Part shown: piece by piece, positions 39,285 to 62,182 of the stretch
Layout of the letters: the number at the start of each line of letters is the position of its first letter
How positions within the stretch are numbered: position 1 is the stretch's first letter
NCBI GenBank assembly: GCA_963759165.1
Contig: CAVWXK010000001.1
Location: 2,849,579-2,913,578, forward strand
Length of the DNA: 64,000 nucleotides
Direction: 5' to 3'
From: an uncultured Pseudomonadota bacterium
GTDB lineage: Bacteria > Desulfobacterota > Binatia > Binatales > Binataceae
Notes under the pieces: generated by a model
Seen by the model: the letters and a program-made list of their open reading frames with translations, nothing else
Database searches by the model: none
Told to the model about the DNA's origin: nothing
Translations under genes and position numbers: made by a program

Positions 39285-39364
39285 CGTCGATGCCGCGACG
39301 CATGATCGCGCGGCAGTGGATTATTACGTCGAGGCGACCTTACCGAGTCCGCCGGAAGGTAAAG

Positions 39365-42184: not shown

Positions 42185-42244
42185 CAGTCGTGTTTCCGGT
42201 GTGAGAACATGGCTACGATGGCCGACAGGGTCGGCCTGGAAGTC

Positions 42245-44572: not shown

Positions 44573-44586
44573 GATAGCGCGACCCC

Positions 44587-45765: not shown

Positions 45766-45784
45766 GGCTGCCGGCGATCCCACG

Positions 45785-46303
45785 TCACATCGAGGGGCTT
45801 GGCGGCGAGATGTAGCGCGGACCCGAACCGAAGCCGCCGCCTGCCGCGAAGCCGCTTACCGCTCCCGCGGCACCGACCCCATCCACGATGAGTCCGAACG
45901 CATCCGGAACGACCGACGCATGTCCGCCGGGAAGTCCTCCGGCGATGCCCGGTGCGCCAATCGCGGACGCCTCCGCTGTTCGCGACAGTCTCCAATTGAT
46001 CGTCATGCCCTCTTTACCCACGAAGGCCACTGCGGTCCCTGGCTGAAAGGGGGTCCCTGCAGGATCCAAAGCGAAGTCGTGGGTCGCCGGTTCGAGATTC
46101 GTGATGCGATAATCGCCCGCGGAGTTGGTGATCGCCTTGCCGGCAACCTTGCCGGTTGGGCTTAGCGCCGCGATCTCGATCCCTTTGACGCGATTCCCCT
46201 CCGGGTCCAGAGCCGTTCCGACGACGTCGGCGCCAAGCACCGCCGAAGCCGCGCTTGCCCAAAGGAGCGCCGCCAGGATGAGCGCAACCGATCGCCTAAC
46301 CAT
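45785..46303 (-). CDS. secreted protein with a carboxypeptidase-regulatory-like (CarboxypepD_reg) beta-sandwich domain
   Basis: Signal peptide MVRRSVALILAALLWASAASA. …GTALDPEGNRVKGIEIAALSPTGKVAGKAITNSAGDYRI… is typical of CarboxypepD_reg. Gly-rich tail. Confidence 0.5.
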   Translation of the reverse strand: MVRRSVALILAALLWASAASAVLGADVVGTALDPEGNRVKGIEIAALSPTGKVAGKAITNSAGDYRITNLEPATHDFALDPAGTPFQPGTAVAFVGKEGMTINWRLSRTAEASAIGAPGIAGGLPGGHASVVPDAFGLIVDGVGAAGAVSGFAAGGGFGSGPRYISPPSPSM

Positions 46304-46664
46304 CGCATCCCTCCTCGCCGGTTTAGCGGCACGCAAACAGGCGTCCGCCATCCCGCGCCAAGCGGATCCGGCCATCGGTGAACGACGCCCCCCTCCTTCG
46401 CCACCAAAGCCGGTCCAGGCAGACGAACCGCTTCGACCACAAGACCAAACCCAACAATGTTCCTAAGGGACCCCCCCTTTGGAGCGCGATAGCAAGCTAT
46501 CGCATATCCGCGCATACCAAAATTGTCAGCGCTGTGCAAGCGCAATCGCAACTCGCGATATTCGACCTCACGCCGCGAAGCTCATCAGAAGCTTAACGAA
46601 AGCGCGACGGCGGGCGCGTCACGCCGCGTCGCAACAATAATTATCGACAGCACGTCAAAGCGGA

Positions 46665-47384
46665 TTACTGGTATTTTCCGCGCAAAAATCGCCAACGCAT
46701 GACGATCAGATCCAGAAACATCCGTGCCGAGTCGCGCACGAAGCGCACTTTGGTGTCCGGATTGTTGTCCCAGCGCACCGGGACTTCGATGACTTTTCCG
46801 CCGCCGCGTGTGATGAGCAGAAGCAATTCGGGATCGAAACCAAAATCTTGAACCCGCTGAAGATCAAAGGCGCGGCACGTGGTGTCGTGCCGAAAGAGCT
46901 TGAACCCGCATTGCGTGTCGTGGATCTTGAGTCCGGTAAAAAGGCGCACGAGGACATTGAAAAAGCGACCGGCGAAGTCACGCAACAATGGCTGGCGAAC
47001 TCCGACTAGCTCCCGCCGCAGCGCTCGTGAGCCGATGGCGGCATCGGCGCCGGAGGATTCGAGCGCGGCCTGCAGCCGGTCAGCTTCTTCGATCGGCACC
47101 GAGAGATCGGCATCGCTCATGAGAATGAACCGGCCGCGCGCCTCTGTCGCTCCCTGTCGCACGGCGAAACCCTTGCCATGGTTGCGATCATTGTGCAGCA
47201 GGCGGACTTCGGGAAAAGCGGCCACAACCTCGAACGTGCCGTCGTTGGAGCCGTCGTCGACGACGATCACCTCTACTGAAAAGGACTTCGAGTTGCTGTA
47301 CCGCCGCAGCTTCTCGAGAGTGCTTTCGATTCGCAGCGCCTCGTTGTATGCCGGGATCACGATACTCAAGTAAGGTTCAACCAT
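46665..47384 (-). CDS. GT2 polyprenyl-phosphate glycosyltransferase (DPM1/GtrB/ArnC-like)
   Basis: LSIVIPAYNE… start, VIVVDDGSNDGT, SDADLS (DxD). 239 aa. Confidence 0.85.
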   Translation of the reverse strand: MVEPYLSIVIPAYNEALRIESTLEKLRRYSNSKSFSVEVIVVDDGSNDGTFEVVAAFPEVRLLHNDRNHGKGFAVRQGATEARGRFILMSDADLSVPIEEADRLQAALESSGADAAIGSRALRRELVGVRQPLLRDFAGRFFNVLVRLFTGLKIHDTQCGFKLFRHDTTCRAFDLQRVQDFGFDPELLLLITRGGGKVIEVPVRWDNNPDTKVRFVRDSARMFLDLIVMRWRFLRGKYQ

Positions 47385-47605
47385 GCGACGAAGCCATAAC
47401 CCATGACGACCAGTAGACGCGACGACGACCAGCGTTTGCTACGCGAGCTTCCCGGTCTTCTGCCGCTGACCGTCGCGCTCGCGTTCAATATCATACTGCT
47501 CGGGCCGGAGACCACGATCGAGCGCGTCACGGTTAACGGCGGCTGGCTCTGTTTTCAACCCGCCAGTTGCAATAATAACCAGCAACGATCGCGGGAGGAT
47601 CCGCA

Positions 47606-48271
47606 ATGAGCTTTTTTGCGGCAGAGTGCTGGGAATCGATCGCGCCGATATACGGCGCGATTCTGCGCCATCCGTTTATAAGAGGACTGGCCGACGGATC
47701 GCTCTCGCGCGAGAGCTTCAAGTTCTATGTCATCCAGGACGCGCTCTACCTGCGCGAATTCGCGCGGGCGCTCTCGATCGCGGCCGCGCGGGCGCCGCGC
47801 GATGAGTGGATCATCATGTTCAACGAACACGCGGCCGGCGCGCTCAAGGTCGAGCGCGTGCTTCACGAGACGTTCTTCAAGGAGTTCGGGCTCGCGCCGG
47901 AGCAGGTCGCTGCCACGCCGCTCGCACCGACCAATCTCGCCTACACGACTTATCTCCTGGCGGCCGCGTACGGCGCGCCGTTTCACGAGGCGATCGCGGC
48001 GCTGCTCCCCTGCTACTGGATTTACTGGGAGGTGGGAAAGGAACTGGAACGCTCCGGCTCGCCCGATGCGCTCTATGAGCGATGGATCGGAACCTACGCG
48101 TCAAAGGAATTCGGTGGCCTGGTAAGCGCGGTGATCGAGGCGACCAATCAGACCGCCGAGCGACTTCGCGATGAGGAACGCGAGGCGATGCGCCGGCGCT
48201 TCATCGCGACCAGCCGCTACGAGTGGATGTTCTGGGAGATGGGGCATCGGCGCGAGCAGTGGCCGGTCTAG
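47606..48271 (+). CDS. tenA: TenA/THI-4 family thiaminase II (aminopyrimidine aminohydrolase)
   Basis: 221-aa ORF with HPFIRGLADGSL, YVIQDALYL and CYWIYWEVGK motifs. GGGAGGA lies 7 nt upstream. Confidence 0.85.
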   Translation: MSFFAAECWESIAPIYGAILRHPFIRGLADGSLSRESFKFYVIQDALYLREFARALSIAAARAPRDEWIIMFNEHAAGALKVERVLHETFFKEFGLAPEQVAATPLAPTNLAYTTYLLAAAYGAPFHEAIAALLPCYWIYWEVGKELERSGSPDALYERWIGTYASKEFGGLVSAVIEATNQTAERLRDEEREAMRRRFIATSRYEWMFWEMGHRREQWPV

Positions 48272-48332
48272 CGGCGGCGCGCTTGTCCGGACGCTGAATG
48301 CTCTGCCAAGATAGGCGCAGGCCGCCAACGGT

Positions 48333-48370
48333 GCCGAGGTGGCGAAACGGCAGACGCAGAGGACCCAAAA
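48333..48370 (+). pseudogene. 5' portion of a split tRNA-Leu(CAA) gene (acceptor 5' strand, D arm, anticodon-stem 5' strand and anticodon loop only)
   Basis: GCCGAGG-UG-GCG-AAACGGCAGA-CGC-A-GAGGA-CCCAAAA. The complementary 3' strands (UCCUC…CCUCGGC-A-CCA) are found 10.9 kb downstream at 59301-59348. The following 85 nt (48371-48454) is non-tRNA sequence. Confidence 0.6.
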
Positions 48371-48454
48371 AGAAGACCGCCCGGAAGGCTACCGACCAAG
48401 CTGACATTACATTCGGCTGCCCTATGTGATAGAAAACTCTTGGTAACCAGCCGC

Positions 48455-48784
48455 GCGGGAGTGGCGGAACGGCAGACGCAGTGGACTCAGACCAAACTTG
48501 AGTGCTCGCCGGGAAACCGGCGATGCAGAACTGCTCAAATTCGGGGAAACCTGTGAAATGGCAATCCCGAGCCAAGCCTGGAGCAGCGCTCCGGGAAGGT
48601 GTAGAGACTAGACGGGCAGCACCTAACCCGCGAACCACGTTCGCGGTACGGTGAAGGGATAGTCCAGACCCCAAACCTCAACGGGACGCCCTTGGCGCTT
48701 CCAGCGAGGACGGCGAAAGCCGTAGAGGCAAGAAAATCCACCGAGCTCACGCTCGTGAGGGTTCAAGTCCCTCCTCCCGCACCA
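48455..48784 (+). tRNA. tRNA-Leu(CAA) interrupted by a 244-nt group I intron after C34; 3' CCA encoded
   Basis: Exon 1 (48455-48488) GCGGGAG-UG-GCGG-AACGGCAGA-CGC-A-GUGGA-CUC. Exon 2 (48733-48784) AAAA-UCCAC-CGAGCUCACGCUCGU-GAGGG-UUCAAGU-CCCUC-CUCCCGC-A-CCA. All stems pair perfectly. The long variable arm, A73 and anticodon C-A-A indicate a class-II Leu tRNA. The 3' exon is very similar to plastid/cyanobacterial trnL 3' exons. Confidence 0.85.
48489..48732 (+). ncRNA. group I intron (cyanobacterial/plastid tRNA-Leu type, IC3-like), no ORF
   Basis: It contains …CAAUCCCGAGCCAAGCC… and …GGAAGGUGUAGAGACUAGACGGGCAGCACCUAACC…. These match, nearly base for base, the P3-P4 and P7/P3'/P8 core strings I recall from the Anabaena/plastid tRNA-Leu(UAA) intron. 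P1 is formed by exon ACUC and intron AG pairing with CUUGAGU. Terminal G at 48732. Confidence 0.8.
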
Positions 48785-48897
48785 CTCTTCCTCACTGTCT
48801 CTTGAGCCGGGAAACCACGAGGCGCCATGTTTCCGCCGTGGCGACAGGGGATCACAGGCTCTGCGATAAATTGGCTGGGTTTTCGGGTTGCAGCCTC

Positions 48898-49512
48898 TTA
48901 TTTTGTTGGAACCTTGGCCGGCGGTGTGGCCCAGACGATATGTCCGGCGGTCGCGATGTCGATATCGACCTGCTTTGCGACCGTGAAGAAAAGAATGCTC
49001 GGATCTTCCAAGCCCCACTCGACATACGGCAGCGAAAAATGAGAAGTGGCAATCAGGCTGTCTCCGCTCAGACGGCCCTGAACCTCCAGGTTGATTTGGT
49101 GCCCGGTCCCGTGAAGTGTCAGAACTCCCAGCAGGTTTGCGTGAAACTGACCGTCAATCTCTAGCTGACCGGTAACGCGCTTAGGCGTGAATTTGATCTC
49201 CGGGTACTTGTGAACTTCGAGTATACTGTCCTTCATCCGGTCATCACGCGCGGATAAGCCGCTGTCACCGCTCGCGGCGACAATGACGACTGAGCCGCTG
49301 GCTTGACCAGTAGCTGGATCGGCCTCGATGATTCCCCGTTCAAGCTTGAAAGTACCGTGCGTGGTATGAAAATCGCCGGGCAAGCGAAACTCGATCAGTG
49401 TCTTTGACGGCTCGAGTTCCAGCGTTGCGGAGCGCAATTCCGCCGCCGCGGCTTGATGCCCGAAGGCGGCCACGGTGAGCAAGAATACAAGCGCACGAAT
49501 GCTAAATGACAT
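48898..49512 (-). CDS. YceI-like periplasmic polyisoprenoid-binding protein
   Basis: Signal peptide MSFSIRALVFLLTVAAFGHQAAA. YceI-like beta-barrel sequence (…HGTFKLERGIIEADPATGQASGSVVI…, FHANLLGVLTLHGTGHQINL). Confidence 0.85.
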   Translation of the reverse strand: MSFSIRALVFLLTVAAFGHQAAAAELRSATLELEPSKTLIEFRLPGDFHTTHGTFKLERGIIEADPATGQASGSVVIVAASGDSGLSARDDRMKDSILEVHKYPEIKFTPKRVTGQLEIDGQFHANLLGVLTLHGTGHQINLEVQGRLSGDSLIATSHFSLPYVEWGLEDPSILFFTVAKQVDIDIATAGHIVWATPPAKVPTK

Positions 49513-50881
49513 TTATGACGCGGCGCGCCATGCCCAGAGCTTCGGTCCAGAATCCGGTCGAGGCATGCATCAACTCCACGATCGCCTCCATTGCGTCAAC
49601 GAACTCATCCAACTGCGATTCGTTTATCACCAACGCGGGCGCGACCTTGAGCACCATGAAGTTGTTCCCGCAGATTTGACTGTATATCGCCTTGTCGCGG
49701 AACAGCCGCATCACCAGCACCTGCCCGAACATCGCCGGATGAATTCTCGAGAACGCTTCGAACAGAATTCTGAGGCGAAACTTTTTGGGAGGGCGAAACT
49801 CGATGGCGGACATCATGCCGAGGCCGCGGATGTCCTTAATCATCTGATAGCGCGAAAGCCGCGCGGCCAGCTTTTCGCGCAGGTAGCGGCCCAACCGCTC
49901 GCCGCGCTCACCCAGGTTGCCGTCCGCGAGCACGTCCATCGTGGCGAGGCCGGCGCGCATCGACAGGCTGTTCTCGCTATAAGTCGATGTGTGAATAATC
50001 GAACGTTTGAACGAGGTATAGACGGAACTATAAACCGCATCCGACATCAGCACCGCCCCTGACGGAACCAGGCCGCCGCTCATCGCCTTGGCAAGGATCA
50101 CCATGTCGGGCTCGACCCTGAAGTGATGCGCGGCGAGGAACGGTCCCGTGCGATACATGCCGGTCTGCACCTCGTCGAGCACGAACAGCGTGCCATGCCG
50201 CCGGCATAGTGACTGCGCTTGTTCCAGGTAATTTGGCGGTGGAATCAAAACTCCCGCTTCGGCCTGAATCGGTTCTACTACGAACGCGGCAAACTTTCGG
50301 GACGACAACTGCCTATCCAATTGCCCAATATCGCCGAATGGAACTGCCTGTGTCCCGGGAAGCAGTGGGCCGAACTCCGCGGTCCAGAAAGGATTGTCCA
50401 TCAGGGACAGCGCGCCGCAGGTGAGTCCATGAAAGCCGCCGCCCGCGTACAGGATCCCGGGCCGCTTGGTGTGGGCGCGGGCAAACTTGATTGCGGCTTC
50501 GACGCCTTCGCTTCCGGAACTGCAGAAGAACACTTTCGACAATCTTCCGCCGGCCTGCGTGCATAGCCGCTCAGCCAGCTCGCCGGCCAATTCCGGCACG
50601 TGGCCTTGCAGCATCGCCGGTCCGTTGCGGTCGAGCTCGGCTTTGAGGGCGCGGACGACGCCCGGATGATTGTGCCCGATGTTATGAACGCAGTAGCCGG
50701 AATTGAAATCCAGAATCCGCCGCCCATTATCGGTGAGAAGTTCTGAACCGAGACAGCTCGCGTAATGCACATTCATCCCGAGAACATCGAGCAGCCGCAC
50801 CCACTGCGGATTGACGTACTGTGCGTACAGCGGCTGCCGCGCGGATGAGTCTTTCGCTTCTGACAGTGGGTTCATAACCAT
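49502..50881 (-). CDS. class III pyridoxal-phosphate-dependent aminotransferase
   Basis: 459-aa ORF with …FFCSSGSEGVEAAIKFAR…, VLDEVQTGMYRTGPF, and the Lys of ILAKAMSGG. It overlaps yceI by 11 nt. Confidence 0.85.
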   Translation of the reverse strand: MVMNPLSEAKDSSARQPLYAQYVNPQWVRLLDVLGMNVHYASCLGSELLTDNGRRILDFNSGYCVHNIGHNHPGVVRALKAELDRNGPAMLQGHVPELAGELAERLCTQAGGRLSKVFFCSSGSEGVEAAIKFARAHTKRPGILYAGGGFHGLTCGALSLMDNPFWTAEFGPLLPGTQAVPFGDIGQLDRQLSSRKFAAFVVEPIQAEAGVLIPPPNYLEQAQSLCRRHGTLFVLDEVQTGMYRTGPFLAAHHFRVEPDMVILAKAMSGGLVPSGAVLMSDAVYSSVYTSFKRSIIHTSTYSENSLSMRAGLATMDVLADGNLGERGERLGRYLREKLAARLSRYQMIKDIRGLGMMSAIEFRPPKKFRLRILFEAFSRIHPAMFGQVLVMRLFRDKAIYSQICGNNFMVLKVAPALVINESQLDEFVDAMEAIVELMHASTGFWTEALGMARRVINVI

Positions 50882-50896
50882 CTCATTCGCTAGCAG

Positions 50897-50924
50897 GCTG
50901 CTGAAAAAGGCTTTTCAGCAGCCC
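50897..50924. promoter_or_regulatory. perfect 12-bp inverted repeat GGCTGCTGAAAA-AGGC-TTTTCAGCAGCC just upstream of the aminotransferase start
   Basis: The palindrome lies 16 nt 5' of the aminotransferase ATG on the minus strand, and about 135 nt 3' of the upstream haem-lipoprotein gene. Confidence 0.35.
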
Positions 50925-51059
50925 GCTACCCCCTCTGTAGTCTCCCCCGGTGGGAGAGAACTCGAGGAAAGAAGCCAGTTTTATCGCAGGGTGCTCGCAA
51001 CCGCTTCCGACACATAAAGGTTTTTCCGCACCCTGCTAGGATTTATTTTGCGGCGTGAT

Positions 51060-51512
51060 TCAATGTGCGGGCACGGCGGGCCGAGAGGCCCAGTTCAGGA
51101 GCGCCTGCTTTTGGTCACTGTTCAGGCGCGCCGAGTGATCGAGCAACGTGTAATCTCCCGGCGGCATCGAGCCGGCGCGCACAGACTTTTCGATATTCTT
51201 CAACGCATCCGTTTTTGTCTGCGCGTCGTAAGTCTGCCAGTCGGAAAAATTCAGCGCCCGGCGCGCGGAGTTGGCGGCCATGTAGGTCGGCGAGACGGCC
51301 GCATACCACGGTGCGCCGCCCCGGGTCGAATGGCACTGGTAACACGATCGCTGGACGATCGCGTTCACTTGCGGGTCCGCACTGACCGCGTTCGCGGAAT
51401 TCGGAGCTGCCGTCTCGGGCGTGGTTGTCTCCTGAGAGCTTGAACAACCCGCGACAAAAAGAGCCATACCAACCAGCCACGCGATCGGAAATAATCGAAT
51501 CTTCATCATCAT
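51060..51512 (-). CDS. haem-binding-domain lipoprotein with a single CxxCH motif
   Basis: Lipoprotein signal MMMKIRLFPIAWLVGMALFVAGC. The mature part contains QRSCYQCHSTRGG (CxxCH) and SVRAGSMPPGDY, typical of the small haem-binding-domain family. The upstream part of the long ORF is not credible coding. Confidence 0.7.
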   Translation of the reverse strand: MMMKIRLFPIAWLVGMALFVAGCSSSQETTTPETAAPNSANAVSADPQVNAIVQRSCYQCHSTRGGAPWYAAVSPTYMAANSARRALNFSDWQTYDAQTKTDALKNIEKSVRAGSMPPGDYTLLDHSARLNSDQKQALLNWASRPAVPAH

Positions 51513-51517
51513 GCCTT

Positions 51518-52693
51518 TTAGTCGTCGAGGCTCACGAAGCGGATGAGTCCCGCGGCGAGGAAAATGATCCCGATGCCGACCGTTGCCGCTAATGGCCGCA
51601 ATGCCGCGGAGGGCGGTTGGCTGCGAATCATCAGATCGTTGAACGCCTGCATGGTCCACGTCGTCGGCATCCAGCGGGCGAGTTCGCGCATCCATCCCGG
51701 CTCAAAGTCCAGCGGCCACCAGCATCCACCGATCGCCGCCATCGCCATGCTGACGGTTACGCCCAGCGGCATCACCGAATCGTGAGCGCGCGAAATCGAT
51801 GCGACCACCAGCCCCAACGCGGCGGCGGCGAAAGAGATTCCGACCGTCGGTATGAGCAACGCGAGAGGATTGCGTCCAAAAGTGATTCCGAACAGTGCCC
51901 ATCCGACCGCGAACAGCAACACCATTTGGGCGATACCGACGATGCTACGCGCGAATAGTTTTCCGAGCAGGAGTCCGGTAACCGGAGCACCACTGACCTG
52001 AAGGCGCTTGAGGGTCCCCCAATCGCGCTCATCGAAGAGCGTCAGCGCAATTCCCAGCATCATGCCAATCAGAAGAAACGTGATGCCGAATCCGGGGACG
52101 TACTGATCGAAGGCGTTTACAGTCACCGCTTCGCCCTCGATGGCGGGTTGTTCGACGAATCCGAGATCGCCGGGGAGCGTGAGCGCCGGCGACGCCACGA
52201 AGGATTCGATTTGCGCTTGCGCCGCCGCCCGCGCTTGCTCGGTGAGTCTTCGGCACAATTCGTCAATCCGAAGTTCGAGCGCGTTTACCTCGACTCGCCT
52301 GACGGGATCGACGAACAGAAACAGCCGAGGCTGGCGGCCCGCGGCGACCGCGGCGCTGGTTCCCGCGGGAATCACCATCGCGATGGGCGTCCGGTCGCGC
52401 TGGCTCACGAGGCGCCGCGCTTCATCGGCGTCGTTGAGCATTTCCAAAGTGAGGTTGCGATCGTGGTGCAGTGCTTGAATTATTCCGTCGGAGACCTGTC
52501 CATGATCGAGGTTGACCACGGGCAGTCGAAAGGAATTCGCGGCACCGCCGTACAGACTGACGAGCGAATATCCCGCGACCGTGATGATCACGACCGGCGC
52601 GAACAGAAGCATGAACAGCACAATCGGATCCTTGACCAGGAGCCGAGCCTCGTTGTGCGCGGTGAGCCATATCGCGCGAAGCATTGCCGACAC
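51518..52693 (-). CDS. ABC-2 type transporter permease
   Basis: 391-aa ORF with N-terminal TM, a large extracytoplasmic loop, and a C-terminal bundle of 5 TM helices (ABC2_membrane_3-like). Confidence 0.85.
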   Translation of the reverse strand: MSAMLRAIWLTAHNEARLLVKDPIVLFMLLFAPVVIITVAGYSLVSLYGGAANSFRLPVVNLDHGQVSDGIIQALHHDRNLTLEMLNDADEARRLVSQRDRTPIAMVIPAGTSAAVAAGRQPRLFLFVDPVRRVEVNALELRIDELCRRLTEQARAAAQAQIESFVASPALTLPGDLGFVEQPAIEGEAVTVNAFDQYVPGFGITFLLIGMMLGIALTLFDERDWGTLKRLQVSGAPVTGLLLGKLFARSIVGIAQMVLLFAVGWALFGITFGRNPLALLIPTVGISFAAAALGLVVASISRAHDSVMPLGVTVSMAMAAIGGCWWPLDFEPGWMRELARWMPTTWTMQAFNDLMIRSQPPSAALRPLAATVGIGIIFLAAGLIRFVSLDD

Positions 52694-52695
52694 GC

Positions 52696-53652
52696 TCAGA
52701 GCACCTGGTCGCGCAGTGCGTGGCCGGTCAGCGCGATGAACGCGTCAGACAGATTCGGACTATGCAGGTTGAAGTCGATGACATTTACGTCCAGTGTGCG
52801 AAGCCCGTGCAGCACCTCGGCGACCTGGCTGAGACTGGTCATCTCGAGAGTTGCCTGGCCTTCGACGAGGGTCCCGCCTATCTCGCGCACGCCGGCAAGT
52901 CCGCCGAAACGCCCTTGCGGCAAATTCCCGCGATAGGTCAGCTCGATGCGAGGCCGGCCGCCGCCGAGTGAAATCACCTTTTCGAGGCTGCCCTCGGCGA
53001 CTAGTTTGCCGCTATCGATCAGCAGCACGCGATCGCAAATGCGTTCCGCCTCCTCCATGTAATGGGTGCTGTAGATTATCGCCGAGCCGTTATCCGCGTA
53101 GCGTCGAATACGCGTCAATATCTGTTCGCGCGATTGGAGATCGACGCCGACGGTCGGTTCGTCCAGCAGCAGCACACGAGGACGATGAACAACTCCGCAA
53201 GCGAGGTTGAGGAGGCGCTTCATCCCGCCGGAAAACCCATGCATCGGATCGTCGGCGCGCCGGCTGAGACCCACCTCCTCGAGCACCCGCTTGCAGCGCT
53301 CCTTCGCGTCGTCCCGCGAGAGTCCTTGCATTCGGGCGAAATGCCATACGTTTTGTGCGGCGCTCAGCGCCGGGTAGAGCGCGAGCGATTGTGGCACCAG
53401 CCCAAGCATGCGTCCCAGCCCGCGCCGGTCGGTGTTTGGCGGCTTGCCATCGATCAGAACACGACCGCTATCAGGTCGCAGCAGAGTGGCGAGGATGGAG
53501 AGCGTCGTGGTCTTGCCCGCGCCGTTTGGTCCCAGCAACCCGGCAATCTCACCGGGCCTCACCGCGAGGCTGACCCTGTCGAGCGCGAGACGAATACCGT
53601 AGCTCTTGGATATCTCGATCGCCTCGAGGATTGGCGCGTCAGCCGGACTCAT
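52696..53652 (-). CDS. ABC transporter ATP-binding protein
   Basis: Walker A GLLGPNGAGKTT, signature FSGGMKRRLNL-like (FSGGMKRLLNLA), and Walker B LLLDEPT. Confidence 0.9.
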   Translation of the reverse strand: MSPADAPILEAIEISKSYGIRLALDRVSLAVRPGEIAGLLGPNGAGKTTTLSILATLLRPDSGRVLIDGKPPNTDRRGLGRMLGLVPQSLALYPALSAAQNVWHFARMQGLSRDDAKERCKRVLEEVGLSRRADDPMHGFSGGMKRLLNLACGVVHRPRVLLLDEPTVGVDLQSREQILTRIRRYADNGSAIIYSTHYMEEAERICDRVLLIDSGKLVAEGSLEKVISLGGGRPRIELTYRGNLPQGRFGGLAGVREIGGTLVEGQATLEMTSLSQVAEVLHGLRTLDVNVIDFNLHSPNLSDAFIALTGHALRDQVL

Positions 53653-53659
53653 CTTGCGC

Positions 53660-54813
53660 TCACGCCGCCGTCACCATCATTCGCATTGCGCCACCCATCA
53701 GGGCCGAGAATGCCCGCGGATGTCGCATCAGCAAGTTGATTATTGTCCGCCGAGCGCGAGGATGGCGCGCGACCATCAACAGGCCGCTGGTGATAAACCA
53801 GTAGCCGCGATAGAACCGGCGCACCTCGCGTTCGTAAGGCTGCATACTCTCCTGCGTAGCGCCGCGCTTTAGAATTTCAGGGAGATGCTTGCCGAGCATC
53901 AACGCCGAGTTGAACGCGATCGACAGTCCCTCGCCGGAGATTGAATCCAGGAATCCCCCAGCGTCGCCGACCAGTACCATGCGATTGGCGTTGCGACGAG
54001 TCACAGCGTGCTCCATCGGCCCGGCTCCTTTAATCGTTGAAATCGCCGGGGCGATCCCAAGCCGCGCCCGCAGGGCCGGAAAACAGCGCATCAGCACCGA
54101 TATTTCCGGCTGCTCGATGACTCCATCTTCCCAGACGAAATTGATTCCGACGCTTTCGTCGGAGACCGGAGTCACCACAGCTTCGCCCTTGTCGTCCACG
54201 TAAACTTCGACGAAGTCGGTCCAGGGGCGAATCTGGTAATGCTGGCGCAGCGCGAAGCGGCGATGGGCGCACGGAACCGGGTCGAGGCCCGATGCCTTTC
54301 GGAGCGACGAGTGAAGCCCGTCTGCCGCGACGACCAGCCTGCCGAATAATTCGCCCTCGGTCGTGTACACCACCGCTTCGCTCGAGGTCGCCTTGTAGCC
54401 ATTGACCGAGCATCGATGGCGCAATACGGCCCCCAGTTCCTCCGCGCGGCGCGCCAGCGCCTCGACCAGTACCGTGCGCCTGATGCCCATCCCGTGGGAG
54501 GGCAGGCGCGCTTCCGCAGCGGAACCGTTTTCCTGGATGAAGCGAATTCCGGCGAATGGATAAAGACGTCGTGCGATCGAAACGATCGGCGATCTCCAAG
54601 GCGCTCGAGGGCCTTCACGCCCGGCGGCAGCACGCCTTCGCCGCAAGCCTTGTCCAGCGGGAAATCGCGACGCTCGACGACTACGACGGAGAGGCCCTGT
54701 TCCGCCGCGACGATTGCGACGGCGAGCCCCGCCGGTCCACCGCCGACTACGACGAGATCCCATATCGCGCGCGCGGGCGCTGATACATAGCTGGCGGCCG
54801 GCGTGCTAGCCAT
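53660..54813 (-). CDS. FAD-dependent oxidoreductase (geranylgeranyl-reductase / flavin-monooxygenase-like), interrupted by an apparent 1-nt indel near 54575-54600
   Basis: The N-terminus sits in ORF 54172..54813 (DLVVVGGGPAGLAVAIVAAEQGLSVVVVERRDFPLDKACGEGVLPPGVKALERLG), a Rossmann GxGxxG. The body sits in ORF 53660..54763 (…IARRLYPFAGIRFIQENGSAAEARLPSHGMGIRRTVL… GDAGGFLDSISGEGLSIAF). The frames switch inside a gatcg x3 repeat. Confidence 0.75.
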
Positions 54814-54819
54814 TTAGCA

Positions 54820-55917
54820 TCACCATCGCAGCAGAACCAACTCGCCGCAGAAACCGGGACCCATCGAGAGCAGCACCCCGTAGTCTCCTGGACGAGCGAC
54901 GTTCGCCTCCAGAAAGTCGGCCGCCACGAACAGCACCGACGCGGATGACAAATTTCCGATCGACGCGAGCGATTTCCAGGATCGCTGGAGACTGCATCGT
55001 GGTACTTCGAGCGCCGCCTCCATCGCCTGCAGCACTTTCGGTCCGCCGGTGTGAGCGATCCAATGCTTGATGTCGCGGCGCGAAAGCCCGTGCTCGTCGA
55101 GGAACGAATCCGCTCCCTGGCGCAGTTTATTTCGCACGAGGTCCGGAACGCCCGCCGACAGCACGATCTCGAAGCCGCTGTCCCCGATGTGCCAGCCCAT
55201 CATTTGCTCGGTGTCGTGAAAGAACATCGATCGCGACGCGACGATCCTCGGCAAGCGCGGCGCGCGGTCCTTCGCTCCGCCGCTTACAATCGCCGCCGCG
55301 GCCCCGTCCGCAAAAAGACCCGATGCGATTACGTTGGCAACCGACTGATCCTTCAACTGGAGCGTAAGCGAGCAGAGTTCTACTGAAACAAGAAGTGCCG
55401 TATGGCTTGGAAAAGCACGCAGGTAGTCCGCTGCTCGGGCCAACCCCGCTGCTCCGCCGACGCAACCGAGCCCGAAGATGGGAGTCCGCTTGATGTCCGC
55501 TCGCATCGACAGTCGATTCACGAGTTTGGCGTCGATGCTGGGCGACGCGATGCCCGTCACGGTAGTGAAAAAAATGTGGTCAACATCCGTCGGCGACAGT
55601 CCTGCTTGCGAAAGCGCCGATAAGGCCGCTTGTTCGCCGAGATCGGTCGCGCGTTCGATCCACTTATCGTTCGTCTTCGAGAATGAATCGAGGGCGCGGT
55701 AATCCTCCATCGGGAGCGCTAGATGGCGTCCGCGAACGCCGACCGAACGATGGATCCGCTCGAAGCGGGCGCGGCCTTCGTCGCTGCCGTCCCATTCCTT
55801 CCAAAGCGCCGCGGAAATCACTTCCTGCGGATAGTAGTTTTCCGGTAGAGCGCGGCCGATCGATCGCAATAGCGGGTGGTTCGTGGCTGATGGCTCATTC
55901 CTTGCCGTGTTGTGCAT
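54820..55917 (-). CDS. type III polyketide synthase (chalcone/stilbene synthase family)
   Basis: …LLRSIGRALPENYYPQEVISAAL… N-terminus. Active-site Cys in IFGLGCVGGAAGL. C-terminal GDYGVLLSMGPGFCGELVLLRW. The start is taken at MHNTAR (365 aa) and could be 26 codons earlier. Confidence 0.85.
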   Translation of the reverse strand: MHNTARNEPSATNHPLLRSIGRALPENYYPQEVISAALWKEWDGSDEGRARFERIHRSVGVRGRHLALPMEDYRALDSFSKTNDKWIERATDLGEQAALSALSQAGLSPTDVDHIFFTTVTGIASPSIDAKLVNRLSMRADIKRTPIFGLGCVGGAAGLARAADYLRAFPSHTALLVSVELCSLTLQLKDQSVANVIASGLFADGAAAAIVSGGAKDRAPRLPRIVASRSMFFHDTEQMMGWHIGDSGFEIVLSAGVPDLVRNKLRQGADSFLDEHGLSRRDIKHWIAHTGGPKVLQAMEAALEVPRCSLQRSWKSLASIGNLSSASVLFVAADFLEANVARPGDYGVLLSMGPGFCGELVLLRW

Positions 55918-56357
55918 GTTAACCGGGATTTCGCGCTTCCAGACCGTCGGTGTTCTGAGCCGGCAGCCTCGGTAGAGGTTTAGAGCACGATTCATGTCGT
56001 CCGCGTGTCGAGGTGATGTTCTTTGTGTGCTGCAAGGCAGCAGCGACAGGCGCACGTTCCTAGCAAACCGCCTGCCATCCGTTTACGCTGATATCAACGG
56101 CCAATCGCTAGGCTTCTCGTCGCTGCATCTCTACGACGACATGGGTTGTCCAAAAATTCGAACGCAAAAAAAGGTTCGTGTACAAACTTTTGAACGAAAT
56201 GAGATAGGCCTTACGGAATTTGGGTCATCGTCAAAAGGATTTCATTAAAGATGGCGGCATCGCGTTTGCTCATGGGGCCGTCTCCTCCGGAGACGGACAG
56301 GTGGCGATTGTTGCCACCGCTCGATTCGTTCGGACGGTTGACCGACTCTGACCAAAA

Positions 56358-57699
56358 ATGACCGAGCATAAACCGAGCGATAGTCTCTGGGCGATTAGCT
56401 CCCTTACAAGCGCGATGGGCAATGGCGCCGCCGAATTCGCGGTGGACGACCAGGAATCCTTTCGCCGGCAGGAATTCGTCTTCGCTTCTCTGAATCTTTT
56501 GCTGATTGGTGCACTGTTGGCGCTGCAAGCGATCTCGAAGTTCGTCCGTGGCAAACCTTCCGCGTCGGTTATCATCGTCCTGGCGGTGGGTTTGAGCGTA
56601 CAGGCGGCTCACCTAATCTGGCTGCGCAAGAGGAACGCGACAATTTCCCGGAGAACACGACGGTTCCTCACTTTCTGGTCTCTCGGCTTCAACTCGATAC
56701 TGGCGTTGGCGCTCACCTCGTTGACCATCAGAGGAGACACTGCGTACTACGCCCTGATGCTTCTTCCGATACTCGAAGCGGCTTTCAGGCTCGGCCTTGG
56801 CGCCACGATTGCGGTGGTTGTACTGGCGGACTTCATCAGCTTCATGGGCGCCTATGGCCTGAAATTCGGCGAGTACATCGAAGCCGGCGCGATGTCGGTA
56901 ATCTACAGCGTGATGGGGGTGCTGGTGTGGCTGCTGGTCAACAATCTACGCACTCGCGAGGCCAAATTCGTGCACAATCTCGAGGAACTCGAACGTACCC
57001 GCCAGCAATTGCTCTCTGAAGAGAAGCTTGCCGCAATCGGCCGATTGTCCAGAGCGATCGCGCACGAAATCCGAAATCCCGTTGCGATGATTTCCAGCTC
57101 GTTGGCAACCGCTATCCGGCCGGGTCAGAACAAAACAGAACGAGAAGAAATGTTCTCGATAGCGGCAAAGGAAGCCGTGCGTCTCGAACGGCTGACCAGC
57201 TGACTTCCTGGTTTACGCGCGTCCGCGTCCCGTGCAGATCGCGCGGGCAAACCTCGCCGACACTCTGAACTACGTCGCTACTCTCGCTCGCGCGCACGCG
57301 GCCAATGAAGGTGTAGCGATCGATGTCGCTGTCGACAGCAAGCTTGAGGGGGAGTTCGATGCGAACCAGATGCATCAGGCGCTCCTGAACCTGGTGCTCA
57401 ACGCAATCGACGCATGTCATCGAGGGGATGTGGTTAAGCTCGACGCGCAGATGAACGGAAACGGCACCATCCGAATCGACGTAGTCGACCCGGCTGGTCC
57501 GATTCCCGCGGAAGTCGTGGCGCGTATTTTCGAGCCGCTGTTTACCACCAAGCGGGGCGGCAACGGACTCGGTCTCGCGATCGCGCGCAACATCGCGCGC
57601 GCGCATGGCAGCGACATCGTGCTGAGATTCAACGAAACGCGGCGGGTATGCTTTTCCATCGAGATACTGGCGCACTTCCCGAGCCAATCCCTCAAATAG
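56358..57699 (+). CDS. sensor histidine kinase (membrane, HisKA plus HATPase_c), interrupted by a +1 T insertion at about 57200 that creates a TGA
   Basis: ORF 56358..57203 holds the TM region plus H-box (RLSRAIAHEIRNPVAMI) and ends …RLERLTS*. The next frame continues PADFLVYARPRPVQIARANLADTLNYV… into the HATPase_c domain (ORF 57232..57699; N-box LLNLVLNAIDA, G-boxes GGNGLGLAIARNIARAHG). The sequence agcTgac has one base more than the expected agc-gac. Confidence 0.8.
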
Positions 57700-57709
57700 G
57701 GGCCACACC

Positions 57710-59116
57710 ATGGGCAAGATACTCATTGTGGATGACGAACCGCACTTGCGGCGGATACTCATCTCCAATCTGAAGCAGGAGCATCACGAGGTAGTCGAGG
57801 CTGCCGGTGTCAACGATGCGCGAGGCGCGCTTGCCGAGCACACATTCGATGCCGTCATAACTGACCAGAAGATGGCCGATGGCGAAGGATTGGACGTCCT
57901 GGCCGCGGCGCGGGAAGCTGATCCGAATCTGTCCGTGCTTTTTCTGACCGCGTTTGCGACCATTGAACTCGCGGTGGAAAGCATGCGCCGCGGCGCATTC
58001 GATTTCATCACCAAGCCCTTCGTTCCTGAAGTCTTGCTGGCGTCGGCCACCCGCGCTATGGAGCACACGCGGCTTGTGCGTGAGAACGCCAGGCTCCGCG
58101 ACACGGTGGTGCGCCTTGAAGGCTCCTCGGAGCTCTCAGGGCGCAGCCTGGCGATTCGCCAACTCCGCGAAAAAATCGCGCGCGTCGCGCCGACCAACGC
58201 CACCGTCCTGATCACCGGGGAAACGGGGACCGGCAAGGAGCTGGTCGCCCGCGCGATTCATCGCAACAGCCTGCGTGCCGGGAAGACGCTGGTCGCCGTC
58301 AATTGTGCTGCGTTTACCGAAACGCTTCTGGAAAGCGAGCTGTTCGGACACGAGCGGGGAGCTTTCACCGGCGCCGATCGCGCGCGCGAGGGAGTCTTCG
58401 AGGCCGCGCACGAAGGTACGCTTTTTCTCGACGAGGCCGCCGAAATGTCGCTGCAGGCGCAGGCCAAGCTGCTGCGGGTGTTGACGGACGGGCTGATTAC
58501 CCGGCTCGGATCGACCAAGCCCCGGCACACCGATGTGCGGCTGCTGGTCGCGACCAACAGGGATTTGAAGCGTCGCGTGGAAGAGGGCCGCTTTCGCGAG
58601 GACCTCTACTACCGGCTGGCGGTGGTTCCTCTCACGGTTCCCGCTCTGCGCGATCATCGCGAGGACATACCCGAGCTTTGCGCCCTGTTCCTGGCGCAGG
58701 CTGTGCGCGACCTGAACACGCCGCCGCGCAGAATCAGCGCCGAAGCGCTTGGCACGCTCCTCAGCTACGATTTTCCCGGGAATATCCGCGAACTTCGCAA
58801 CCTCATCGAGCGCGCATGCATTCTCTCAGCCGAGGAGGAAATCACCCAGGAGAACTTTCCGGTGTCAACGCCTCGCAGCGCAAACGGCCTTGCGGCCCGC
58901 AGTTCCGCCGAACTCACCACCGACCAGCTTGCCGAGATGATGCCCGAGACACACAACCTGCGAGAGTTTCTCGCTTCGCTGGAAAAAGCGGTGATTCAGC
59001 GCGCGCTGAAGATAACCGATGGTGCGCAGGCGGAAGTCGCGCGCCGGCTAGGAATGTCGCGAAGCGATCTTTCATACAAGCTCGGCAAACACCGCATCAA
59101 GAGCGCGGCGAACTAA
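57710..59116 (+). CDS. sigma54-dependent response regulator (REC plus AAA+ sigma54-activator plus Fis-type HTH; NtrC family)
   Basis: Phospho-acceptor Asp in the DAVITDQKM context. Walker A GETGTGKE, GAFTGA sigma54-contact motif, and C-terminal HTH (QAEVARRLGMSRSDLSYKL). Confidence 0.9.
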   Translation: MGKILIVDDEPHLRRILISNLKQEHHEVVEAAGVNDARGALAEHTFDAVITDQKMADGEGLDVLAAAREADPNLSVLFLTAFATIELAVESMRRGAFDFITKPFVPEVLLASATRAMEHTRLVRENARLRDTVVRLEGSSELSGRSLAIRQLREKIARVAPTNATVLITGETGTGKELVARAIHRNSLRAGKTLVAVNCAAFTETLLESELFGHERGAFTGADRAREGVFEAAHEGTLFLDEAAEMSLQAQAKLLRVLTDGLITRLGSTKPRHTDVRLLVATNRDLKRRVEEGRFREDLYYRLAVVPLTVPALRDHREDIPELCALFLAQAVRDLNTPPRRISAEALGTLLSYDFPGNIRELRNLIERACILSAEEEITQENFPVSTPRSANGLAARSSAELTTDQLAEMMPETHNLREFLASLEKAVIQRALKITDGAQAEVARRLGMSRSDLSYKLGKHRIKSAAN

Positions 59117-59217
59117 CCCCGTAATCCGGCAAGGGCTTGCACATCCGTCACAGCCAGCGCGAACCCCGCTCCCGCTAGCTGCTCGGCCACGCCCTTAAGA
59201 TGATCCGGAAAGCCTTC

Positions 59218-59289
59218 AAAACTTACACATAAACTTACACAGTCTCACAGCGATGAAGATGAAAGCTCAATTCTTTCAAGGAGTTATGA
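59218..59289 (+). repeat. AT-rich (about 35% GC) segment with three direct AAACTTA(C/T)A motifs abutting the tRNA 3' fragment; candidate integrase arm-type sites
   Basis: aaaacttacacat-aaacttacacag … aataaacttatagg. This is the lowest-GC stretch in the window and sits exactly at the island/tRNA-fragment junction. A related AAAACTC / TTACA motif occurs in the left arm (48403-48432). Confidence 0.4.
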
Positions 59290-59348
59290 ATAAACTTATA
59301 GGACTCAAAATCCTCCGTGCGCAAGCACATGCGGGTTCAAGTCCCGCC
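59290..59348 (+). pseudogene. 3' portion of the split tRNA-Leu(CAA) gene (anticodon-stem remnant, loop, variable arm, T arm, acceptor 3' strand, CCA)
   Basis: AGGA-CUCAAAA-UCCUC-CGUGCGCAAGCACAU-GCGGG-UUCAAGU-CCCGC-CCUCGGC-A-CCA. UCCUC and CCUCGGC are exact complements of GAGGA and GCCGAGG in the 5' fragment at 48333-48370. Confidence 0.65.
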
Positions 59349-59415
59349 CTCGGCACCAGAACATCCTCACCCGAGCAGGCGGGGGATTCAGAGAAGCGCG
59401 CCCTTCAGCCGGCCA

Positions 59416-60743
<1,328 letters not shown>

Positions 60744-60751
<8 letters not shown>

Positions 60752-62028
60752 GCGCTTCTTTCCTCAGCGGAATATCGACGATGAACCTGCTGCCATGACC
60801 GGGTTCACTCTCCACGAAGATGCGGCCCTCGTGAGCCTCGACGATTTCCTTGGCGATGTAAAGTCCGAGCCCGGCCGATCCCGCGCGGGCCGGATTGTCG
60901 GGAAATTGCGCGTAAGGCTCGAAAATCCTGCCGAGCAGCTCGCGGGCGATTCCGGGGCCGGTATCGGACACGACAATGCGCGCCGTGCCGTCGCGGCGGC
61001 TGAGTTCCACGGCGATTCGGCCGCGCTCGGGAGTGTAACGCAGCGCGTTGCCGACCAGGTTGGTAACTACCCACGGCAGCTTGATCGGATCGCCCCAGAT
61101 CGGGATTGGGCGATCCGCGACCGTCAGCTCGAAGCGGATGCCCTTGTCCGCGGCCTGCATCGCGAGCGGGCGGCAGACTTCTTCGAGCACGGCGGCGAGC
61201 ATAATCGGGCGGCGCTCGACGCTGATGCGGGCGGCGCTTGAACGCGAGGCGTCGAGCAAATCGTTGGCAATGGCCTGGAGACGACTGAACGTCCTCGCGC
61301 AATGAGGCGAGAATTTCCCGCCGGTGGGGATTCGACTCGGCGGACATCGACTCGGCCAGCAGCTCGGAGGCGATGGTAAGTGAGGTCAGCGGCGTCTTGA
61401 GTTCGTGCGAGAGCGTGCCGATCAGATTGGTGCGGGCGCGCTCCTGATCCCGAACAAAAGTGACGTCCTGGAGCAGCACGATGGTGCCGAGCGGCTCGGT
61501 GCCGGCGGCGCCGGACTGCGCGAGAGCGTCTCCATCGTTGTGCGCCGAATGCGGACCTGTCCACGGTAATCGGCGCGCGAGATAAGTATGATCGCGACCG
61601 CGGATGAAGACCTTGAACTCGGTCGGCGCGCCGTCGCCGCCGCGATCGCGCTCGAACGCGGCCGTCAGCCGCATCACGTGAGGATTGTGCCCGGCGAGTT
61701 GCTCCAGCGAGCTTCCGAGCACGCCGTCGGGCTCAAGCCCAAGGATCGCGCGAGCGACTTCATTGATATGGACGATGGCCCCGGTGCGGTCGAGCACGAT
61801 GAGGCCGTCTTCGATACTCTCGATGATAGCCGCGGTCTTGGAACGCTCGCGATCAAGCTCGGCAACGCGCGTGCTGTAGCCCGCCTGCATCCGTGCTACC
61901 ATCGTGCGTGAAAGCGCGTAGCTAAAAACGGCCAGCATCACCGCGCTCATCAGGAGCAGCAGCATTGACTCAGCGCGCTCCGTCAAAGATGAGCGCTGGA
62001 TAACAAACGCGTCGAGCGCCGCCGTCAT
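60744..62028 (-). CDS. sensor histidine kinase (TM, PAS-like, HisKA, HATPase_c), interrupted by an apparent +1 T insertion near 61285
   Basis: ORF 60805..62028 gives the N-terminal sensor plus H-box ([13 protein letters not shown]) up to …LREDVQ, then turns into nonsense. ORF 60744..61259 in the adjacent frame continues …[36 protein letters not shown]… through the N/G boxes ([13 protein letters not shown]; DTGPGIA; [19 protein letters not shown]). Confidence 0.8.
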
Positions 62029-62182
62029 CAGGACGAGAATCAGAATCTTCAGCCGGATGTGGCCGCATCCGGCTAAAGAACGGCCACTCCGGGCGGCTTG
62101 ACCTGCCTGCGGCGGCCGATGGGTAAGACATAGCGCATTGTACCGTCGCCGGCGGCGGGCAAATCAAGACGGAGGTTCCCCA

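Follow-up and report, generated by a model that had tools for sequence, protein, structure and literature searches.

In actinobacteriophages, tRNA-dependent lysogeny has been shown experimentally: the host tRNA gene is not rebuilt upon integration, and a phage-borne cognate tRNA is required (Guerrero-Bustamante & Hatfull 2024, PMC10865867). Examples are Fionnbharth, Cain, LeBron and Gaia (tRNA-Leu-CAA, 8-bp core), and also the prophage Lj965. Phages with cores of 8 to 17 bp do not rebuild the tRNA, while close relatives with cores of 40 to 50 bp do (PMC10865867). Here we describe a comparable arrangement in a 64-kb window (the whole stretch of DNA that was analyzed, part of a 3.27-Mb contig, to which all coordinates refer) from an uncultured Binatia-type bacterium, in which a resident tRNA-Leu(CAA) gene is split in its anticodon loop by a 10,940-bp island that carries a complete tRNA-Leu(CAA) gene of its own, hereafter tRNA B. 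As in tRNA-dependent lysogeny, a tRNA gene of the host contains the bacterial attachment site (attB), the core is short (11 bp, around 8–17 bp in the phages), the tRNA is not rebuilt, a complete tRNA with matching isotype and anticodon is present on the island, and related elements with long cores do rebuild their tRNA. Unlike those phages, the island is not a phage, has no integrase and bears a native-type metabolic and regulatory cluster as cargo; besides, its putative substitute tRNA has a group I intron, and a dependence of the host on it is hypothetical. Disruption of a tRNA gene by an element that brings its own replacement is so far demonstrated only for some phages. What would be new here is the known short-core, non-rebuilding scheme in a non-phage, integrase-less island with an intron-containing tRNA of the Leu.3Cg type. 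An earlier description made from the letters of this stretch (the sequence-only reading) had called the arrangement unusual; it was right about a non-regenerating element with its own tRNA, but the actinobacteriophages provide a precedent (PMC10865867).

Three other described systems resemble the locus in part. Classical tRNA-gene islands of the Islander type, for which the anatomy of attachment (att) sites in the anticodon loop has been described (PMC4383910), share with it the tRNA target, a displaced 3' fragment at one end, the anticodon-loop sublocation and the use of a hot spot. In contrast to them, the island does not regenerate its target, with unrelated DNA following the 5' part, and has no integrase at either end. 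The second system is that of cis-mobilizable elements (CIMEs) and other decayed elements derived from ICEs (integrative and conjugative elements) or IMEs (integrative and mobilizable elements), as defined in ICEberg 2.0 (PMC6323972). Like a CIME, the island lies between attL- and attR-type junctions, has no integration or transfer genes and is homologous at one end to relaxase-carrying elements; however, CIMEs retain two intact, target-rebuilding att sites, whereas the left site of the island consists of the 11-bp core only. The third is archaeal: in Caldiarchaeum, a tRNA-Thr 5' fragment lies beside an intron-containing copy (PMC3293823), and according to the Randau-Soll idea, as cited in PMC4390854, introns and splits protect tRNA genes from integration. 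The window likewise has a 5' fragment just upstream of a complete, intron-containing isoacceptor gene, with mobile DNA implicated and an intron that breaks the attachment sequence. It differs from the archaeal cases in that the host is a bacterium, the intron is of the self-splicing group I type and not protein-spliced, and there is no indication that the fragments are used.

The 5' part of the resident gene (GCCGAGGTGGCGAAACGGCAGACGCAGAGGACCCAAAA, 48333–48370, plus strand) comprises the 5' strand of the acceptor stem, the D arm, the 5' strand of the anticodon stem and the 7-nt loop, and ends in an attL-type junction with the sequence GGACYCAAAAAGAAGACCGCC. The displaced 3' part (AGGACTCAAAATCCTCC...CCCTCGGCACCA) occupies 59300–59358 on the same strand together with the right copy of the core, forming an attR-type junction, and supplies the 3' strand of the anticodon stem, the variable arm, the T arm, the 3' strand of the acceptor stem, A73 and CCA. 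The sequence-only reading had located the 5' part precisely; for the 3' part it listed the right elements at 59290–59348, that is, 10 nt too low. Joined in silico with either version of the loop, the two parts are called as an 86-nt tRNA-Leu(CAA): all four stems pair, the variable arm measures 15 nt, and both A73 and CCA are there, in line with the complementarity that this reading had noticed between the halves. In the unedited 64-kb window, ARAGORN and Rfam (at gathering thresholds) found zero tRNAs: neither part is a tRNA alone, no tRNA is called at either junction, and the target is indeed left split. The 11-nt core AGGAC(C/T)CAAAA, already described as a direct repeat at the two breaks, occurs only twice in the 64 kb, once per break (48360 and 59300). 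Its left copy (48360–48370, AGGACCCAAAA) has a C in place of U33, and its right copy spans 59300–59310 (AGGACTCAAAA). The upstream region of the resident gene (48277–48332, plus strand, GGCGGCGCGCTTGTC...TCTGCCAAGATAG) is kept ahead of the 5' part and forms a near-invariant block in the alignment with the contigs L196, L007 and L001 (L-numbers designate contigs of relatives and metagenomes). This block is probably the promoter of the resident tRNA gene, judging from its conservation and position; a strict sigma-70 scan gave no promoter call in it.

To see the locus without the island, we collected contigs of relatives, labeled Candidatus Binataceae or Binatus, through close homologues of the TenA protein encoded on the left flank. 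In five of them (L196, L007, L001, L002 and L004), an intact resident-type tRNA-Leu(CAA) directly follows TenA, and both L196 and L007 extend across it to the sigma-54 regulator. Collinearity of L196 (GCA_040960765.1, 19.5 kb) with the window covers 38748–48277 (87–91% identity) and 59416–62034 (92%), so that synteny extends over around 10 kb to the left of the tRNA and 2.6 kb to its right; L196 has no counterpart of 48371–59299. In L007, the order is TenA, intact tRNA-Leu(CAA), a small ORF and the same sigma-54 regulator. The alignments to the relatives end exactly at the core, and on the left the identity to the intact tRNA ceases after ...CAAAA. Since L196 and L007 keep the tRNA uninterrupted between the same flanks, the window contains an insertion of 10,940 bp in the anticodon loop, a size that includes one copy of the core. 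The insertion, the duplication of the core and the empty sites are thus observed directly, and the footprint of site-specific integration in the anticodon loop that the sequence-only reading had anticipated is there, with empty sites in five contigs and the break exactly at the core. Between the displaced 3' part and the corresponding portion of the intact tRNA in L196 and L007, the identity is 96.6%, and the two differences are a compensatory pair in the variable arm.

Both flanking genes are conserved neighbors of the tRNA in the relatives. The left one, encoding TenA/thiaminase II (47606–48271, plus strand; Pfam TENA_THI-4, E 5e-45), has a DNA identity of 88–90% to its counterparts in L001–L007 and L196, where the tRNA behind it is intact. 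The right one, a sigma-54 response regulator identified by Pfam (59416–60751, minus strand, read as two ORFs through a frameshift near 59890), is 92% identical at the DNA level to L196 12053–14666 and L007 3238–3654. The gap between tRNA and regulator measures 57 bp in the window (59359–59415) versus about 1 kb in L196 (11008–12052) and L007 (2184–3237), where it holds an ORF of 178–184 aa with a signal-peptide-like start.

Inside the left junction, an 84-bp spacer (48371–48454, plus strand) without kinship to the tRNA 3' half separates the core from tRNA B. A decayed, rebuilt 3' half within this spacer was considered and rejected, as its local alignment to the 3' half was no better than that of shuffled sequences. 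With introns allowed, ARAGORN calls a tRNA-Leu(CAA) at 48455–48784 on the plus strand with a 244-nt intron after position 34, in agreement with the intact, intron-containing gene proposed at these coordinates from the letters. Exon 1 (48455–48488) ends with C34; the intron (48489–48732) is a probable group I, IC3-like intron of the 'Leu.3Cg' type; and exon 2 (48733–48784, AAAAUCCAC...CUCCCGCACCA) was also detected as a repeat. The Rfam model Intron_gpI scores the intron at 45 bits (E 3e-10), with a gathering score of 50 for the model; the cut-offs used by Williams for tRNA introns are 18–20 bits. Spliced in silico, tRNA B has a length of 86 nt and a cloverleaf fold, and 16 of its 86 positions differ from the resident tRNA, largely through compensatory changes in the stems.

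The intron lies between anticodon positions 34 and 35: exon 1 ends in ...GGACUC, the intron in ...GCAAG, and exon 2 starts with AAAAUCC. In the minimum free energy fold, P1 consists of ACUCA/UGAGU, where C-1:G takes the place of the U.G pair; the last intron position is an omega-G. We therefore have a probable member of the known Leu.3Cg class, predicted to be of the self-splicing type. It has in common with this class the 34/35 position, a putative IC3-type core, the omega-G and a C-1 paired with G in P1. All 72 cases of the class have been assigned to Proteobacteria (bioRxiv 10.1101/2020.01.27.920355); unlike the published cases, tRNA B belongs to a Binatia-type genome, lies inside an island and adjoins a disrupted, intron-less paralogue. 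No other instance of the left junction, of the spacer or of tRNA B was found in the approximately 1.4 Mb of collected loci, nor was a further copy of tRNA B present among the matches listed in the genome scan, which is weak evidence of absence.

The nearest relatives of tRNA B in the annotated collections are intron-containing tRNA-Leu(UAA) genes on conjugative plasmids of Bradyrhizobium, with 78.5% identity. Their intron has the same guide sequence, TTGAGT, and a near-identical core, but U-1. In one such plasmid (L201, CP094621.1, 6001–6291), the tRNA-Leu(UAA) gene has a classical U-1 intron of 204 nt and lies about 2 kb from the trb transfer genes. The tmrB-aac(3)-IId resistance module also has next to it a tRNA-Leu(UAA)-like gene that is unannotated and contains a group I intron (L200, LC257589.1, 6001–6298). 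This gene is around 72% identical to tRNA B over exon 1 and most of the intron (Rfam, 36.6 bits) and is found beside this module in more than 1,200 plasmids (1274 records) of Escherichia, Klebsiella, Salmonella and Acinetobacter. Given their presence on Bradyrhizobium and enterobacterial plasmids, intron-containing tRNA-Leu genes travel on mobile DNA. An unannotated stretch of the Gordonia phage Daredevil (NC_048021.1, 41897–42115) is 69% identical to positions 16–222 of tRNA B, which are mostly intron; Daredevil is among the phages reported as not rebuilding their target tRNA.

The right end of the island is formed by a P-arm-like module (59197–59299, plus strand) with tandem repeats, a 59-nt AT-rich spacer and a third motif that abuts the core. 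The tandem AAACTTACACA repeats lie at 59219–59241, and the third copy, AAACTTATA, at 59292–59300, touching the core. The iterated AAACTTA(C/T)A motif that the sequence-only reading had seen here is real: AAACTTAYA has three exact copies in the window (59219, 59231 and 59292) and no others. We scanned metagenomes for the pattern ACATAAACTTACACA-N50-70-GGACTYAAAATCC and obtained 61 contigs, each of them with a spacing of about 59 nt followed by the 3' part of a tRNA-Leu (UAA or CAA). The family can be defined as TTACACATAAACTTACACA plus 59 nt plus an anticodon-stem/loop core plus a tRNA-Leu 3' part, and 59219–59358 fits this definition. The end-module is thus conserved in these 61 other loci; L126 and L137 also share it with the window (73–78% identical). 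In around 46 of the 61 loci, a TrwC-type relaxase gene or a 3' fragment of one lies just upstream of the module (Pfam PF08751, E 1e-79). Because the module recurs ahead of tRNA-Leu 3' parts, mostly just after a TrwC relaxase, it is shown to be the conserved end of a conjugative or mobilizable (ICE/IME) family that targets the anticodon stem-loop of tRNA-Leu. The module of the window has no relaxase upstream; there, the gene of a sigma-54 regulator stops 80 bp ahead of it. Canonical members of the family rebuild the tRNA, and L174, although decayed, still presents this picture: besides the displaced 3' part, it has an intact tRNA-Leu, located 3 kb upstream of its module. Scans of viral contigs gave no match for the end-module and none for the intron.

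Two readings of the right end as part of an integrase gene were discarded. Integrase-like peptides in 59119–59232 (minus strand, PDHLKGVAEQL; plus strand, LLGH...KTYT*) gave only chance matches in a tblastn search against plasmids. Regarding the motif as the tail of an integrase gene, the reading frame that ends in it has just 2–80 codons across the 61 family loci, usually 7–8, and a frame so short makes the motif a DNA site and not the end of a gene. A further member of the family, L185 (Ga0207933_1017834), contains an IC3 group I intron core on the reverse strand (approximately 1340–1642; Rfam, 41 bits) that is around 85% identical to the intron core of the window. It lies 190 nt downstream of the end-module and its tRNA-Leu(UAA) 3' part, and no recognizable tRNA exons surround it.

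Integration into this kind of target is not restricted to one family. In about 30 of the 118 Binatia loci among the matches listed (L008–L125), a displaced tRNA-Leu(CAA) 3' part is preceded by unrelated DNA. These displaced parts have only (G)GACTC and AAAA in common with the tRNA at their upstream boundary, and the sequences ahead of them fall into at least 4–5 families. Homologues of integrases lie near eight of the tRNA-Leu loci, some of which come from other phyla. A displaced copy coexists with an intact tRNA in several contigs, and in L063, L083 and L113 short remnants without an integrase separate an intact tRNA from a displaced 3' part. From these comparisons, the anticodon loop of tRNA-Leu(CAA) is an integration hot spot in Binatia.

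The interior of the island, between tRNA B and the right-end module, is filled by a gene cluster that leaves no room for a further gene (cluster 'S', 48898–59116, both strands). Pfam assigned its members to YceI (48898–49512), a class-III aminotransferase (49502–50881), a haem-binding protein (51060–51695), an ABC-2 permease (51518–52693), an ABC ATPase (52696–53652), an FAD oxidoreductase (53660–54763) and a type III polyketide synthase (PKS)/alkylresorcinol synthase (54820–56055), all on the minus strand, followed on the plus strand by a histidine kinase (56358–57699, with one frameshift) and a sigma-54 response regulator (57710–59116). The cargo list given by the sequence-only reading thereby holds. 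We found no integrase, relaxase, transfer or phage gene among the ORFs of the island, all of which were assigned to other Pfam families in a domain scan that covered the ORFs of 42–64 kb. The absence of an integrase from the island, as had been stated, also agrees with a P4-like integrase query (tblastn and phmmer) that covered the 64-kb window and had no match in it or in the island; serine recombinases and transposases were not searched. A query with the TrwC relaxase (tblastn and phmmer) had no match in the 64-kb window either.

With these elements, the explanation that we tentatively prefer, at somewhat better than even chances, is a short-core, non-rebuilding, site-specific insertion that brought its own cognate tRNA and is now represented by a stripped-down, CIME-like island. 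The resident tRNA-Leu(CAA) gene first stood between TenA and the sigma-54 regulator, and the 10,940-bp block then entered its anticodon loop. In their anatomy, the junctions look like those of integration by tyrosine recombinases, as known from att sites in anticodon loops. Recombination of this type, as we infer it, would have taken place across the 11-bp common core AGGACYCAAAA, with the overlap in the 7-nt anticodon loop. It would have produced a left junction composed of tRNA 5' part, core and island, and a right junction composed of island, core and tRNA 3' part. As the island side of the core has no copy of the tRNA 3' half, the resident gene was presumably left inactive. From its place 84 bp inside the left junction, tRNA B, which would be separately promoted, presumably takes over the role of the resident gene, and its intron would interrupt, in the DNA, the very sequence used by integrases of the anticodon loop. 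The island is probably a CIME-like derivative, now fixed, that was inserted or trimmed with the help of a recombinase acting in trans, in an order of events that we can only propose. Since it is devoid of any mobility gene, the island is best seen as an immobilized or hitch-hiking derivative and not as an autonomous element.

Several observations weigh against this explanation. The left and right copies of the core mismatch at one base (C/T), although this could be an assembly error. Every other family member observed has a long, tRNA-derived core, which favors a secondary loss at the left junction of the window. The reconstructed phage-type attachment site (attP), TTATAGGA-CYCAAAA-AGAAGACC, has no inverted repeat to the right of the overlap. 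L126 has a decayed copy of the end-module on the opposite side of the same cluster, which a simple model leaves unexplained. In addition, C-1:G introns are of unproven activity: the C-1:G pair inactivates the Tetrahymena intron (bioRxiv 10.1101/2020.01.27.920355), and hence splicing of the Leu.3Cg class is in doubt. Neither the P4-like integrase query nor the TrwC relaxase query described above had a match in the island or elsewhere in the 64-kb window, and the recombinase is hypothetical. One could also argue that no substitute was needed in the first place. The tRNA-Leu(UAA) usually reads UUG by wobble, so the resident tRNA-Leu(CAA) may be dispensable.

The nature of the cargo points in the same direction. 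The whole cluster is found at 80–88% DNA identity in other Binatia contigs, with variable flanks and no att sites except in L126; its neighbors there are MlaA (as in L128 and L129), PGA_cap, Fpg, or a tRNA-Ala with an integrase. Homologues of the PKS with 80–93% protein identity are plentiful in Binatia. A compositional contrast between the island and its flanks, which the sequence-only reading had proposed to look for, does not exist: the tetranucleotide profiles correlate with r = 0.975 and the GC content is 60.2% versus 62.0%, inside the range of the rest of the window. Being common in Binatia chromosomes and indistinguishable in composition from the flanks, the cargo is not foreign; it is, by these sequence criteria, a native and lineage-typical chromosomal cluster, which is unusual for incoming mobile DNA. 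The proposal of a mobile element with cargo is therefore correct as to the insertion, while the cargo itself is a native Binatia cluster and the island has no mobility gene.

For the left junction, our preference for a non-rebuilding insertion has to be set against a secondary deletion, which we consider possible but doubtful. Here, an ordinary ICE or IME would have integrated and rebuilt the tRNA, and later deletions, possibly mediated by the integrase at a secondary site, would have removed the rebuilt 3' half, the integrase and the transfer genes. With the same doubtful standing, the remnant would be a scar that happens to hold a passenger tRNA gene and a gene cluster. The long cores of all other family members and the rebuilt tRNA of L174 are what such a history predicts, and the missing right-hand symmetry of the attP and the one-base difference between the cores fit it as well. 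The relaxase that precedes the module in around 46 of the 61 loci has clearly been lost from the island, so deletions did occur, and the remnants in L063, L083 and L113 show that short, integrase-less leftovers are common in Binatia. However, the deletion would have had to stop exactly at the boundary between loop and stem and to leave zero remnant of the 3' half in the spacer. Moreover, a tRNA with the same anticodon 84 bp from the core would be a coincidence, though it is just what non-rebuilding elements carry. Selection would also act against loss of the only rebuilt copy if its function were not yet covered by tRNA B or, through wobble reading, by tRNA-Leu(UAA).

A more ambitious version of the preferred insertion seems to us unlikely. 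According to it, the island would be a non-phage 'tRNA-replacement' element that destroys the host tRNA-Leu(CAA) and supplies the sole remaining copy, shielded by its intron from anticodon-loop integrases. tRNA B would be immune to these enzymes because its group I intron breaks the attachment core in the DNA. If this intron-shield reading were true, it would be a bacterial, self-splicing version of the Randau-Soll idea, and it would imply that the C-1:G introns of the Leu.3Cg class splice in vivo.

Slightly less plausible still is a chromosomal rearrangement, in which the native cluster and a neighboring tRNA-Leu would have been moved into the site by recombination among dispersed tRNA-Leu and att fragments. 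Two such routes, improbable like the rearrangement itself, can be conceived: a circle excised between att-like sites and then reinserted, or capture by aberrant excision of an ICE. The composition of the cluster is native, it is present in most of the Binatia contigs examined, with variable flanks, and many dispersed tRNA-Leu 3' parts exist in Binatia genomes. In L126 (ERZ25039538 contig_6420, 17030–17190, minus strand), the YceI end of the cluster borders on a decayed end-module whose tRNA-Leu(UAA) 3' part is broken, an order that is a circular permutation of the arrangement in the window. Nevertheless, we found no second att-like site by the cluster in L126, L128, L129, L191–L195 or L197–L199, and the origin of tRNA B is left unexplained, as the clusters of the relatives all lack it. 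The same 11-bp core would still have to be recognized by a site-specific recombinase, so that the rearrangement is a variant of the preferred insertion and not an alternative chemistry for the junctions.

Four further readings were considered and rejected. The sigma-54 regulator of the island is not a duplicate of the flanking regulator, to which it is merely 43% identical. The polysaccharide-export synteny between the window and L126, considered as a sign of an inversion, involves Poly_export proteins with 41% identity and hence paralogous loci. A search of the window for an ancestral site that the cluster might have vacated returned a paralogous CoA-transferase as its sole match, and a tRNA-Ala-bounded island around the cluster in L191 lacks a displaced fragment. 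In L191/L192 (819–2177), tRNA-Ala(GGC) and a P4-like integrase (Arm-DNA-bind_3 plus Phage_integrase) sit beside this same cluster at its regulator end, and no displaced tRNA-Ala fragment was found within 17 kb.

It is very improbable that both junctions are chimeric joins made by the long-read metagenome assembly. Compared with intact orthologues, 6 kb of the window do contain three frameshifts of a single base each, typical of error-prone long-read assembly: at 57200 in the histidine kinase of the island, at 59890 in the flanking sigma-54 regulator and at 61228–61283 in a flanking kinase, each of which splits its gene into two ORFs. On either side of the frameshifts, the genes remain highly identical to the orthologues of L126 and L196, which looks like long-read indel errors rather than pseudogenes. 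Nonetheless, errors of this kind do not make 11-kb insertions; two independent misjoins would have had to fall in the same 11 bp and duplicate the core, with both flanks collinear with L196, and the right junction is built in the canonical way seen at 61 independent att junctions.

Weakest of all, and practically negligible, is a functional split tRNA gene whose halves, which are undecayed and perfectly complementary and whose 5' member keeps a conserved upstream region, would be transcribed apart and joined in trans, as in Nanoarchaeum, or trans-spliced by intron halves: unlike the Nanoarchaeum halves, these have no complementary flanking sequences (the duplex between the 5'-half tail and the 3'-half leader reaches -8.8 kcal/mol versus -8.6 +/- 2.7 for shuffles), neither has an intron fragment beside it, the loop copy of the 5' half carries C33, the relatives have an uninterrupted gene and, to our knowledge, bacteria lack the archaeal splicing endonuclease.

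If the substitution by tRNA B is true, the strategy of disrupting a tRNA and bringing one's own would extend from actinobacteriophages to integrase-less chromosomal islands of an uncultured phylum, and the att machinery of conjugative elements could then move conserved chromosomal clusters to new sites. The locus is also a natural test case for the function of C-1:G (Leu.3Cg) introns, on whose splicing the cell may depend, and it pairs an intron-less tRNA gene hit by integration with an intron-interrupted paralogue, a configuration in which protection by introns could be tested. From a practical point of view, standard tRNA finders miss tRNA-Leu(CAA) entirely in this region, and conclusions on genome completeness or codon usage would err for such genomes.

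Finally, two differences in gene content were observed outside the junctions. In L128 (9015–10004), L129 and L191–L193, the kinase and the PKS have between them a FA_desaturase_2 gene, which is cleanly absent from the window (55932/55933), L126 and L194. On the left flank, the glycosyltransferase region of the window (46580–47540) has other genes in its place in L196.

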